A stretch of DNA of 64,000 bases from Escherichia coli (GTDB lineage: Bacteria; Pseudomonadota; Gammaproteobacteria; Enterobacterales; Enterobacteriaceae), in the NCBI RefSeq assembly GCF_003334405.1, contig NZ_QOWM01000011.1. The stretch is one strand, 5' to 3'. This document shows positions 2,695 through 56,830 of this stretch, piece by piece. Position 1 is the stretch's first letter. Each line of letters opens with the position of its first letter. The notes below the pieces were generated by a model. That model made no database searches. It was not told the origin of the DNA and saw only the letters and a list, made by a program, of their open reading frames with translations. Made by a program: the position numbers and the translations under genes.

Positions 2695-2923
2695 TTTTAC
2701 TCCATGTCGTCGGTGCTGCGAGTGTCGCAGATAAACATACCCAAAAGAAAACCCTCACCGTCAGGCGGCGAGGGTTTAACTCACATGATGATACTGACTG
2801 TTGCTCACTCTTTGAAGTGATTTGCGTCACATTCAGGGAATTCCTCAATGCAGCGCATTATGTATAAATCTTAATCGCCTTGGTTTATGGAAGACGAATT
2901 AGCGTGTTTTGTAAATCAGATGA

Positions 2924-15283: not shown

Positions 15284-15844
15284 ATGAACGTGAGTAAATA
15301 TGTCGCTATCTTTTCCTTTGTTTTTATTCAGTTAATCAGCGTTGGTAAAGTTTTTGCTAACGCAGATGAGTGGATGACAACGTTTAGAGAAAATATTGCA
15401 CAAACCTGGCAACAGCCTGAACATTATGATTTATATATTCCTGCCATCACCTGGCATGCACGTTTCGCTTACGACAAAGAAAAAACCGATCGCTATAACG
15501 AGCGACCGTGGGGTGGCGGTTTTGGCCTGTCGCGTTGGGATGAAAAAGGAAACTGGCATGGCCTGTATGCCATGGCATTTAAGGACTCGTGGAACAAATG
15601 GGAACCGATTGCCGGATACGGATGGGAAAGTACCTGGCGACCGCTGGCGGATGAAAATTTTCATTTAGGTCTGGGATTCACCGCTGGCGTAACGGCACGC
15701 GATAACTGGAATTACATCCCTCTCCCGGTTCTACTGCCATTGGCCTCCGTGGGTTATGGCCCAGTGACTTTTCAGATGACCTACATTCCGGGTACCTACA
15801 ACAATGGCAATGTGTACTTTGCCTGGATGCGCTTTCAGTTTTGA
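15284..15844 (+). CDS. pagP: Lipid A palmitoyltransferase (outer-membrane beta-barrel)
   Basis: ORF 15260..15844; start at [10 protein letters not shown]... gives the 186-aa precursor with a signal peptide. Confidence 0.9.
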
Positions 15845-16018
15845 GACAAATGAAGTTTTAGTAACTTCTTTAAAATCAATAGCTAAAATAAGTAACATCA
15901 AAAATAACGCGACTTTTATCACTTTTTAGTAAAGTTACACTGGACAAAGCGTACCACAATTGGTGTACTGGTAACCGACACAGCATTTGTGTCTATTTTT
16001 CATGTAAAGGTAATTTTG

Positions 16019-16228
16019 ATGTCTAAGATTAAAGGTAACGTTAAGTGGTTTAATGAGTCCAAAGGATTCGGTTTCATTACTCCGGAAGACGGCAGCAAAG
16101 ACGTGTTCGTACACTTCTCTGCAATCCAGACTAATGGTTTTAAAACTCTTGCTGAAGGTCAGCGCGTAGAGTTCGAAATCACTAACGGTGCCAAAGGCCC
16201 TTCTGCTGCAAACGTAATCGCTCTGTAA
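16019..16228 (+). CDS. cspE: Cold-shock-domain protein E
   Basis: ORF 15989..16228; start at [20 protein letters not shown] (69 aa) with the RNP1 motif KGFGFI. Confidence 0.95.
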
Positions 16229-16244
16229 GATACGTCAGCAAGAA

Positions 16245-16277
16245 TTCAAAACCCGCTTAATCAGCGGGTTTTTTTTG
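16245..16277. terminator. Bidirectional rho-independent terminator between cspE and crcB
   Basis: aaaacccgcttaatcagcgggttttttt: 7-bp stem flanked by an A-run and a T-run. Confidence 0.8.
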
Positions 16278-16281
16278 GTCT

Positions 16282-16665
16282 TTAGTGTGCGGTTGAGGCC
16301 GAAAACAGCCAGAATGCCAGTGCGGTCATGGCAAAAGACCCCAGAAGGTTGACGAAAACGTTCAGTAATGCCCAGCCAAAGCGGCCCTCTTGTAACAAAA
16401 ACACCACTTCTGCCGAAAATGTTGAGAAGGTTGTTAGACCGCCACAAAATCCGGTGGTGATTAATACTTTCCACACTGGATCAATGTTCGTCATCCTGCT
16501 GAACCATGCGAATCCTATTCCTATGATGAATGCCCCAATCAGGTTTGCTGTCAGCGTCCCCAACGGAATCGCCTGATGCAGTGGGTTAAATCGCATACTT
16601 AACAGCCATCTCGCCACGCTTCCCGTACCACCGCCAATAAAAACTGCTAAAAGAAGTTGTAACAC
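16282..16665 (-). CDS. crcB: Fluoride ion channel (CrcB/Fluc)
   Basis: 127-aa small membrane ORF recognised as CrcB. Confidence 0.9.
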
Positions 16666-16751
16666 TGCAAAATCCTGCTATTTGATTTGTATGAGTGATA
16701 AGTGTAACGCCGAATAATCGTCGTTGGCGAATTTTACGACTCTGACAGGAG

Positions 16752-17545
16752 GTGGCAATGCTGGTTGCCGCAGGACAGTTTGCTGTTACATCTGTGTGGG
16801 AAAAGAACGCTGAGATTTGTGCCTCGTTGATGGCGCAGGCGGCGGAAAACGACGTATCGCTGTTTGTCCTGCCGGAAGCATTGCTGGCGCGCGATGATCA
16901 TGATGCAGATCTATCGGTTAAATCAGCACAGCTGCTGGAAGGCGAATTCCTCGGACTTTACGGCGAGAAAGTAAACGTAACATGATGACGACAATTCTGA
17001 CGATTCATGTTCCTTCAACGCCGGGGCGCGCATGGAATATGCTGGTGGCACTTCAGGCAGGAAACATCGTCGCCCGTTATGCCAAACTGCATCTCTATGA
17101 TGCATTTGCCATTCAGGAATCACGCCGTGTTGATGCTGGTAATGAAATCGCTCCGTTACTGGAGGTGGAAGGGATGAAGGTCGGTCTGATGACCTGTTAT
17201 GACTTACGCTTTCCAGAGCTGGCGCTGGCACAGGCATTACAGGGAGCTGAAATCCTGGTACTTCCTGCCGCCTGGGTTCGCGGGCCGCTCAAAGAGCATC
17301 ACTGGTCAACGCTGCTTGCCGCTCGTGCGCTGGATACCACCTGTTATATGGTGGCGGCGGGGGAGTGCGGGAACAAAAATATCGGTCAAAGCCGGATTAT
17401 AGATCCCTTTGGCGTCACCATTGCGGCAGCGTCAGAAATGCCTGCACTCATTATGGCGGAAGTGACGCCCGAACGTGTGCGTCAGGTGCGCGCGCAACTG
17501 CCCGTCTTAAACAACCGTCGCTTTGCGCCGCCGCAATTATTATGA
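16752..17545 (+). pseudogene. ybeM: Carbon-nitrogen hydrolase family gene disrupted by a frameshift
   Basis: Two consecutive ORFs in different frames (16752..16985 and 16982..17545) together resemble one CN-hydrolase protein; the frame break is near 16980. Confidence 0.6.
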
Positions 17546-17673
17546 TGTTTTTTTACTCGGCGCTTGATTCACCTTGTTACAGATTGCTATTGTGTGCGCG
17601 CGTCGAATGACCGTTAATATTCTCTGGTTTTTAAGGCGCGTTCTGTTGCCGGTTATATGTCAAGAAGGTATCT

Positions 17674-17877
17674 ATGGGTGAGATTAGTATTACCAAACTG
17701 CTGGTAGTTGCGGCGCTGGTCGTTCTGCTGTTTGGGACTAAGAAGTTACGTACGCTGGGCGGAGACCTTGGAGCGGCCATTAAAGGGTTCAAGAAGGCGA
17801 TGAATGATGACGATGCTGCGGCGAAAAAAGGCGCAGACGTTGATCTTCAGGCTGAAAAGCTCTCTCATAAAGAGTGA
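17674..17877 (+). CDS. tatE: Twin-arginine translocase subunit TatE
   Basis: 67-aa ORF with an N-terminal transmembrane helix typical of TatA/E. Confidence 0.9.
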
Positions 17878-17916
17878 CGTGGCGAGCAGGACGCTCCCTC
17901 AATATCTTGTTCGATA

Positions 17917-17948
17917 CAAAAAACCCGCTTCAAAAAGCGGGTTTTTTA
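17917..17948. terminator. Bidirectional rho-independent terminator between tatE and lipA
   Basis: aaaaacccgcttcaaaaagcgggtttttt: 8-bp stem flanked by an A-run and a T-run. Confidence 0.8.
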
Positions 17949-17977
17949 TCAGACAGATGTAAGTAATTATTACAGGA

Positions 17978-18943
17978 TTACTTAACTTCCATCCCTTTCG
18001 CCTGCAAATCGGCGTGGTAAGAAGAGCGGACAAACGGACCGCATGCAGCATGGGTAAAGCCCATCGCCAGCGCTTCGGCTTTCATTTCGTCGAACTCATC
18101 CGGGCTAACGTAACGTTGAACCGGCAGGTGATGGCGGCTTGGCTGCAAATATTGCCCCAGCGTTAACATCGTCACACCATGACGGCGCAGGTCGCGCATT
18201 ACCTCAATAATTTCTTCATTGGTTTCACCCAGTCCCACCATCAGACCAGACTTGGTCGGGATTTCCGGATGCGCTTCTTTAAAGCGTTCCAGCAGCTTCA
18301 GCGACCAGTTGTAATCTGCACCAGGCCGTACCTGACGGTAAATACGCGGTACGTTTTCCAGGTTATGGTTGAACACATCTGGTGGCGTTGCAGTCAGAAT
18401 ATCCAGAGCACGATCCATACGACCGCGGAAATCCGGCACCAGAGTTTCAATTTTGATTTGCGGGCTTTTTTCCCGAATGGCAGTAATGCAATCCGCAAAG
18501 TGCTGGGCACCGCCATCGCGCAGGTCATCACGGTCAACGGAGGTGATAACCACATAACGCAGCGCCATATCGGCAATGGTCTGAGCCAGTTTCACTGGTT
18601 CATTGGCATCAGGAGCTACCGGGCGACCGTGGGCAACATCACAGAACGGACAACGGCGGGTACAAATAGCGCCGAGGATCATAAACGTTGCTGTGCCGTG
18701 GTTGAAGCATTCCGCCAGGTTAGGGCAGGAGGCTTCCTCGCAGACAGAATGCAGGCCATTTTTGCGCATTGCGGCTTTGATGCCCTGGATACGTGTAGAG
18801 TCCGCTGGAAGCTTGATTTTCATCCATTCCGGCTTGCGCAGCAGGGCTTCGCGCTCTGTTGCCACGTTTTTAACCGGGATAAGGGCCATCTTATCGGCAT
18901 CGCGGTATTTAACACCGCGTTCCATCACAATGGGTTTACTCAT
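17978..18943 (-). CDS. lipA: Lipoyl synthase (radical SAM)
   Basis: 321-aa ORF with the radical-SAM cysteine motif CTRRCPFC. Confidence 0.95.
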
Positions 18944-19151
18944 AGCGTGCGTGTTCCAGTTGCGAATTACGAAGGAAAGCGTTTCAATTCAATAGATTGT
19001 TGTAATTATCAACTATTTTTGAATTAACGACTGGCAGTATATCATTGAAACGGACCTGAAAGCAGCCAAAGCGGTCGCGAAAATGTAAAATTGTTGTTGG
19101 ATTGTGCCATTTTATCGTTCTGCGCTGTGATCTGGCTGTAACAATACTTTT

Positions 19152-45407: not shown

Positions 45408-45443
45408 AGAAAAAAGAGGGTAGCAGCGTTAACTGCTACCCTC
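45408..45443 (-). terminator. Intrinsic terminator in the gltI-gltJ intergenic region (likely SroC 3' end)
   Basis: Perfect 11-bp stem gagggtagcag/ctgctaccctc followed on the minus strand by six U; ends about 2 nt before the gltJ Shine-Dalgarno. Confidence 0.7.
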
Positions 45444-45570
45444 GAAGATTGTTACCCAGCGTATTGCGGTTTTCAGGCCCGATGGGGAACGACCATCAGG
45501 CGTATAGTCTGTCCGTGCTACGTAACAATCGAGAGGGCTGGAATTTCCGCCCCTGGTTCTTGTAATTAGT
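45410..45570 (-). ncRNA. sroC: SroC small RNA region (3'-derived from the gltI transcript)
   Basis: Position in the gltI-gltJ intergenic region ending at the intrinsic terminator; assignment from remembered K-12 annotation; 5' end not determinable from sequence. Confidence 0.45.
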
Positions 45571-53814: not shown

Positions 53815-53900
53815 TTGCCGGATGCGTGCCAACCGTAGGTCGGATAAGACGCGGCAGCGTCGCATCCGACATTGAAGGATAAGACGTGTCAACATCGCAT
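53815..53900. repeat. REP/BIME palindromic elements downstream of ubiF
   Basis: tgccggatgcg...taggtcggataagacgcg...cgtcgcatccgacatt match REP-type palindromes. Confidence 0.6.
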
Positions 53901-53925
53901 TCGACATTGAATGAACGCAGAAAAG

Positions 53926-53953
53926 CAAAAAGCTCGCCGAAGCGAGCTTTTTT
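53926..53953. terminator. Bidirectional rho-independent terminator between ubiF and the tRNA operon
   Basis: aaaaagctcgccgaagcgagctttttt: 7-bp stem, GNRA-like loop, flanking A- and T-runs. Confidence 0.8.
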
Positions 53954-53957
53954 AATG

Positions 53958-54032
53958 TGGCTGGGGTACGAGGATTCGAACCTCGGAATGCCGGAATCAG
54001 AATCCGGTGCCTTACCGCTTGGCGATACCCCA
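53958..54032 (-). tRNA. glnV: tRNA-Gln (anticodon CUG)
   Basis: 75-nt reverse complement matches the tRNA-Gln cloverleaf with anticodon loop TTCTGAT and 3' CCA; could equally be called glnX. Confidence 0.9.
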
Positions 54033-54079
54033 ACAAATTGGTTTTGAATTTGCCGAACATATTCGACACATTCAGAATT

Positions 54080-54156
54080 TGGTGGCTACGACGGGATTCG
54101 AACCTGTGACCCCATCATTATGAGTGATGTGCTCTAACCAACTGAGCTACGTAGCC
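54080..54156 (-). tRNA. metU: tRNA-Met elongator (anticodon CAU)
   Basis: 77-nt reverse complement GGCTACGTAGCTCAGTTGG...CCA with anticodon loop CTCATAA. Confidence 0.9.
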
Positions 54157-54171
54157 AGATTGTTTCTTCGA

Positions 54172-54246
54172 TGGCTGGGGTACCTGGATTCGAACCAGGG
54201 AATGCCGGTATCAAAAACCGGTGCCTTACCGCTTGGCGATACCCCA
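54172..54246 (-). tRNA. glnW: tRNA-Gln (anticodon UUG)
   Basis: 75-nt tRNA-Gln with anticodon loop TTTTGAT; could equally be called glnU. Confidence 0.9.
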
Positions 54247-54269
54247 TCCGTACAACGCTTTCTGGTGAA

Positions 54270-54354
54270 TGGTGCGGGAGGCGAGACTTGAACTCGCACA
54301 CCTTGCGGCGCCAGAACCTAAATCTGGTGCGTCTACCAATTTCGCCACTCCCGC
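54270..54354 (-). tRNA. leuW: tRNA-Leu (anticodon UAG)
   Basis: 85-nt reverse complement GCGGGAGTGGCGAAATTGG...CCA with a long variable arm and anticodon TAG. Confidence 0.9.
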
Positions 54355-54363
54355 AAAAAAAGA

Positions 54364-54440
54364 TGGTGGCTACGACGGGATTCGAACCTGTGACCCCATC
54401 ATTATGAGTGATGTGCTCTAACCAACTGAGCTACGTAGCC
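54364..54440 (-). tRNA. metT: tRNA-Met elongator (anticodon CAU)
   Basis: 77-nt copy of the same tRNA-Met as 54080..54156. Confidence 0.9.
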
Positions 54441-54480
54441 ATCTTTTTTTTCGCGATACCTTATCGGCGTTGCGGGGCGC

Positions 54481-54509
54481 ATTATGCGTATAGAGCCTTG
54501 CAGCGTCAA
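54481..54509 (-). promoter_or_regulatory. Putative sigma70 stable-RNA promoter of the tRNA operon
   Basis: On the minus strand: TTGACG, 17-nt spacer, CATAAT, then the GC-rich discriminator GCGCCCCGC, about 40 nt upstream of the first tRNA. Confidence 0.55.
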
Positions 54510-54819
54510 CCTCTTTTTCAAGGAAAATTGCTCGAAAGTGACTGTTTGGTTAGGTTGCGAACAGCGTGGCGCTATATTCGTCAATTATTGTTTACTTTGT
54601 GTTTTTTCCCACCCTACAGCCATTCTTTTGTCATACAGGATGAAATTCGGAATTTAACAATAGTGGTGGGAAATTAATCTATGAAATACTGGCCTACAGT
54701 GATGAGTTGTCAAACAGTGATGTGGCAAACCCGGAACATTTCCTTACTGCATATCAGAATCAACAAGCACCTCAATAACTGAAACAGCCCCGGATTTCAC
54801 CGGGGCTGTTTCGCATTTC

Positions 54820-56730: not shown

Positions 56731-56830
56731 TGCCGGATGCGGCGTGAACGCCTTATCCGGCCTACAAAAGCATGAAAATTCAATATATTGCAGGAGCTGC
56801 GTAGGCCTGATAAGCGTAGCGCATCAGGCA
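56731..56830. repeat. REP/BIME cluster between asnB and umpH
   Basis: tgccggatgcggcgtgaacgccttatccggcctac and gtaggcctgataagcgtagcgcatcaggc match REP consensus palindromes. Confidence 0.65.

Follow-up and report, generated by a model that had tools for sequence, protein, structure and literature searches.

Nit1, a eukaryotic protein from the CN-hydrolase (carbon-nitrogen hydrolase) fold family, acts hydrolytically on deaminated glutathione, which side reactions of transaminases generate as a by-product, and mice, yeast, cell lines and Arabidopsis that lack it suffer no harm (PMC7041631). The Escherichia coli protein YbeM belongs to the same fold family and shares aligned Glu, Lys and Cys residues with the Nit domain of NitFhit (PDB 1ems), although NitFhit is a distant homolog with profile-level similarity only and YbeM has no Fhit fusion. 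Closer systems are found within E. coli itself. In O157:H7, BL21 and most other strains, YbeM is encoded by one open 789-nt frame, while in K-12 ybeM is a frameshift pseudogene that is already known and is annotated as such in RefSeq and UniProt; work on MG1655 has made use of the "pseudo gene ybeM" as a neutral place for insertions (PMC7242477).

The locus described here lies in a 64,000-nt stretch of E. coli DNA (hereafter the window), and it matches the K-12 pseudogene in its position between crcB and tatE, in the deletion of one G at the matching position and in an identical 187-aa product. The K-12 copy differs by three extra substitutions in a 1.1-kb region, two of which, V33A and V37A (called against the intact reference allele of EC21Z-063), fall in the N-terminal piece. 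Compared with the intact alleles, the window encodes a 100% identical protein once the G is restored and has the same neighbours, but its frame is broken at codon 67.

Reading frames and protein family of the locus

The gene order around the locus is pagP, cspE, crcB (minus strand), ybeM, tatE, and lipA (minus strand), and published accounts give parts of it as "ccrB (<) ybeM (>)" (PMC5320621) and "ybeM-tatE-lipA" (PMC6206680). With a 1.1-kb query, the ybeM region was found in 5,425 of 5,426 complete E. coli genomes. The earlier note had named the gene ybeM from two abutting open reading frames (ORFs) of 77 and 187 aa in different frames; both ORFs are on the ORF list, and neighbour order and database names agree with the name. 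The list for 15500-19000 places them in frames 0 and -1 with a 4-nt overlap (ATGA, 16982-16985), and a one-frame translation of 16752-17545 stops directly after ...KVNVT. RefSeq genomes that are identical here (strains 300709, K-12 MG1655, and A14) begin the gene at ATG 16758, which is preceded at 5 nt by an AGGAGG motif, and the first piece is therefore 75 aa long (table 1). In an exact look-up, the 187-aa product was described as [quoted passage not shown], the cluster of the 75-aa product as "Putative protein YbeH YBEH_ECOLI", and the 262-aa intact form as "Deaminated glutathione amidase", YBEM_ECO57.

Profile searches bear out the proposed membership in the nitrilase superfamily of carbon-nitrogen hydrolases. 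With the intact allele protein as query, which is identical to the window sequence with the G restored, residues 3-245 matched positions 2-255/256 of the Pfam CN_hydrolase model (PF00795; E = 9.4e-41). The NCBIfam model for deaminated glutathione amidase (NF033621; EC 3.5.1.128) gave the same intact or restored protein 452 bits against a cutoff of 355, whereas the two window ORFs scored 85.3 and 344.6 bits. Along the 260 positions of this model, residues 3-66 of the first ORF correspond to positions 2-65 and residues 2-186 of the second to positions 76-260. Because one profile spans both pieces end to end, the ORFs do not stand side by side by chance, and because each alone stays below the cutoff, the DNA is the locus of the family without encoding any qualifying protein. 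The substrate of the E. coli enzyme is putatively deaminated glutathione, as indicated by the NCBIfam and UniProt naming and by Peracchi et al. 2017, reportedly the primary Nit1 paper on the deaminated-glutathione amidase function.

Among solved structures, the best relative was the Nit domain of NitFhit (PDB 1ems; E = 3e-29), a single chain of which aligns with residues 5-255, with yeast Nit2/Nit3 and mouse Nit2 next in rank. E40, K110, and C147 of the restored protein align with residues 54, 127, and 169 of the 1ems chain, which we take to be the Glu-Lys-Cys triad of NitFhit (Pace et al. 2000). The three residues are thus at their conserved positions, but their codons lie in two different frames; with Glu40 in one piece and both Lys110 and Cys147 in the other, neither piece holds a complete active site.

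Table 1. Positions of the ybeM features and of Rfam matches in the window
Feature	Position	Strand	Remarks
Shine-Dalgarno-like AGGAGG	16747..16752	+	5 nt 5' of ATG 16758; read from sequence
N-terminal ORF	16752..16985	+	77 aa, GTG start, ORF list
N-terminal piece ("ybeH", old K-12 nomenclature)	16758..16985	+	66 native codons, 9 out-of-frame codons, TGA
C-terminal piece ("ybeM" in K-12)	16982..17545	+	187 aa, ATG start, equals Met76-Leu262
Whole ybeM pseudogene as in RefSeq	16758..17545	+	"deaminated glutathione amidase", pseudo, frameshifted; coordinates agree in strain A14
Lesion, one G missing	between 16956 and 16957	+	multiple alignment, 2 frameshifted and 2 intact alleles
Glu40 codon GAA	16875-16877	+	N-terminal piece
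Lys110 codon AAA	17084-17086	+	C-terminal piece
Cys147 codon TGT	17195-17197	+	C-terminal piece
cspA-type thermoregulator Rfam model over cspE	15834-16276	+	ordinary Rfam match
rnk leader	2740-2848	-	ordinary Rfam match
sroC sRNA, within gltIJKL operon	45408-45570	-	ordinary Rfam match
ES036 sRNA	56766-56808	+	ordinary Rfam match

The single-base deletion and its distribution

To locate the indel by alignment to intact orthologs, as the earlier note had suggested, the window was aligned with two frameshifted alleles (300709 and K-12 MG1655) and two intact ones (EC21Z-063 and GmM066). The intact alleles read CTCGGACGTTTACGG where the window, 300709 and K-12 read CTCGGAC-TTTACGG, and this one G is the sole length difference from the intact alleles inside ybeM. 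The missing base is the second of codon 67 (Arg67, CGT in the intact alleles), lies outside any homopolymer run (context GGAC[G]TTTA) and places the frameshift 26 nt 5' of the ORF junction, and not at that junction (~16982), where the indel had initially been put. Past Gly66, reading continues as LYGEKVNVT and ends at the TGA at 16983-16985, so that, relative to intact orthologs at the same locus, the frame is disrupted by a premature stop 9 codons after the deletion. Restoring the G in silico yields a 262-aa protein with 0 differences from WP_000959109.1, the YbeM of O157:H7. The window allele has no second disabling change and, besides the G, differs from EC21Z-063 by one synonymous C/T. The alignment, the reconstruction and the profile matches together uphold the proposal that a frameshift has cut one gene, of some 260 aa, in two.

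The deletion is present in many genomes: among 5,426 complete E. coli genomes, at least 860 contain an exact 58-mer across it, and 3,627 contain the corresponding 59-mer that represents the intact allele. When genomes with SNPs in the probe were apportioned by the identity bands of both probe searches, the deletion allele was assigned to between 860 and 1,072 genomes and the intact allele to at least ~4,350, of ~5,424, which puts the share of the deletion at ~16-20%; in agreement with this share, 7 of 40 matches in a spread sample of 1.1-kb matches had the 1,101-nt length. The same deletion occurs in K-12 MG1655, 300709, and A14, each flagged "frameshifted" by RefSeq. Over window positions 5000-29000 (24 kb), 15 or more independent assemblies match at full score and 100% identity, among them Canada goose, opossum, poultry and human isolates and two NCTC strains, and the window is collinear with strain A14 over its first 54 kb, every 1-kb bin being at least 99% identical. 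The lesion is therefore a heritable one, present in independent genomes. The suggestion that the gene may be intact in other strains likewise proved right, by alignment and by probe counts: most complete E. coli genomes keep it, including BL21, O157:H7, and UTI89-type strains, and an intact 789-nt CDS is present in EC21Z-063 (WP_000959109.1) and GmM066 (WP_001314558.1). Because the sequence context is non-repetitive, the deletion is most parsimoniously explained by shared ancestry or by transfer of one allele, which points to a single origin.

Competing readings of the split frame

We consider it almost certain that the amidase, a dispensable enzyme of metabolite repair, was lost through an inherited 1-bp deletion in an E. 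coli sub-lineage to which K-12 and the isolate both belong. The earlier note had left the choice between a decaying gene and a sequencing error. A gene that is intact in the isolate and lost one G to the basecaller might seem plausible, since one-base indels are a typical form of assembly error; however, the lost G is outside a homopolymer, the same deletion is seen in K-12 MG1655, 300709, and A14, its exact 58-mer recurs in 860 complete genomes, and 15 or more assemblies, which come from different laboratories and hosts, match the surrounding 24 kb at 100% identity. A sequencing error is thus practically excluded and its probability is negligible, leaving the decaying gene as the half of that choice that stands. 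Hardly more credible is the view that ybeH and ybeM are two genuine separate genes that simply abut, as the early K-12 annotation with its two ORFs, YbeH and YbeM, would have it. The earlier note had pointed out that its reading would fail if intact orthologs were really two genes, but in Shigella and in most E. coli the ortholog is a single protein of 262 aa. Moreover, a single family profile runs contiguously over both pieces, one NitFhit chain aligns over residues 5-255, the catalytic triad is split across the pieces, and each of them falls short of the NCBIfam cutoff of 355 (85 and 345 bits).

A less easily dismissed, though still very improbable, reading is that the gene is split yet functional, either through reinitiation at the ATGA and association of the fragments or through ribosomal -1 frameshifting that yields some full-length protein. 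Under reinitiation, ribosomes would end at the TGA at 16983-16985 and restart at the overlapping ATG 16982; the stop of the first ORF does overlap the start of the second (16982-16984), an arrangement that can permit translational coupling, and this reading also gains from the persistence of the frameshift allele in many genomes and from the lack of further disabling mutation in the window allele. Against it, the ATGA is an accident of the native Asn75-Met76-Met77 codons and no evolved junction, native residues 67-75 would be absent and 9 foreign residues gained, and 5' of the second ATG there is a weak purine run (GAGAAAG) and nothing more. The two extra changes of K-12, V33A and V37A, are both nonsynonymous and lie beside Glu40, as expected under relaxed constraint (n = 2), and curators have given the gene pseudogene status. 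Programmed -1 frameshifting was rejected, since a slippery heptamer of the form X XXY YYZ was found in no frame between 16900 and 16985. It is similarly doubtful, to a degree that we would put close to dismissal, that the 187-aa fragment, with Lys110 and Cys147, complements the 75-aa Glu40 fragment so as to leave residual amidase activity, or that it has some other effect in carriers of the allele (about one-sixth of E. coli).

Probable inactivation of ybeM, its surroundings and what the loss would mean

On this account, one G was lost from codon 67 of a 262-aa deaminated-glutathione amidase gene, the Nit1 ortholog, probably in a single ancestral deletion; the loss shifts the frame, and the lesion is inherited within the sub-lineage that contains K-12 and the sequenced strain. 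From the normal start, the product ends after 66 native and 9 aberrant residues and retains Glu40 alone of the triad, Lys110 and Cys147 being left in the downstream frame. Judging from the sequence, this separation of the triad and the truncation would have abolished the enzyme activity of YbeM, presumably the recycling of transaminated glutathione to 2-oxoglutarate and Cys-Gly. We infer that the inactivation is evolutionarily recent, and the loss is most likely lineage-specific and effectively neutral. It may have been tolerated because the repair activity is dispensable under most conditions, and the harmlessness of Nit1 absence in the eukaryotic systems mentioned above fits a loss that is easily tolerated in part of E. 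coli.

Several other signals were noted at the locus. No Rfam family reached its gathering score as a structured RNA or riboswitch in 16276-17700 (the crcB-ybeM intergenic region and the gene), and a promoter and terminator scan of 16200-17950 gave counts not above those of shuffles. A promoter-like site on the minus strand (TTGCCA-16 nt-TAAAAT, 16758->16731, 10/12 matches) points towards crcB, which it probably serves, and overlaps the start codon and ribosome-binding site of ybeM. NsrR binding upstream of ybeM has been reported in K-12 and CFT073 (PMC5320621), and, in view of this binding and of the promoter-like site, the divergent crcB/ybeM control region may still be active though ybeM is dead. 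Two antisense ORFs, 16734..16901 (-) and 16923..17237 (-), had no support and were treated as chance. Inside ybeM, a 56-aa out-of-frame ORF (17007-17177, +) starts with MFLQRRGAH; it comes after stop codons, and the reading of the first ORF does not reach it. Cells were reported to filament on over-expression, from pBAD24, of a 29-bp UTI89 ybeM fragment whose encoded peptide is exactly MFLQRRGAH (PMC6206680), probably an artefact of over-expression. The cluster of the 187-aa product also holds other shortened YbeM forms, of 242 aa (275 contigs), 168 aa (39 contigs), and 215 aa, which hints that in other strains this locus has additional independent lesions or that its gene was called differently.

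In GmM066, whose ybeM is intact, pagP nearby has an internal stop and pseudogene status in the annotation (L004 185-745), and a 3-nt insertion (AGG) is present in the ribosome-binding region of ybeM. Further along the window, a tRNA cluster downstream of asnB (53958-54440, minus strand) comprises five tRNAs, Gln-CTG, Met, Gln-TTG, Leu, and Met. The asnB-side cluster of strain A14 has seven, the two additional ones being tRNA-Gln, and at this point the window is shorter by 221 nt; additional tRNA-Gln copies also lie under the tRNA-cluster match in K-12-type genomes, as in A14. The five-tRNA arrangement is rare: at least 80% of 53850-54550 is covered in one place in 80 of 5,426 complete genomes, 37 of these at 99% identity or more (e.g., NZ_CP041110.1 at 100%). 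Its probable source is recombination between the tandem tRNA-Gln copies with loss of sequence, or else a collapse during assembly.

The importance of the finding beyond correct annotation is slight, ybeM of the window being a real but ordinary pseudogene. K-12-type strains and the lineage of the isolate are to be modelled without deaminated-glutathione amidase, whereas the majority of other E. coli, BL21 and pathogenic lineages among them, still have the amidase gene. Insertions can be placed safely and neutrally at the ybeM locus, as is already done, and the lineage could be marked by the single-G deletion. More generally, ybeM is a tidy illustration of how one hit, in all likelihood a very recent one, makes a pseudogene of a dispensable gene for metabolite repair.
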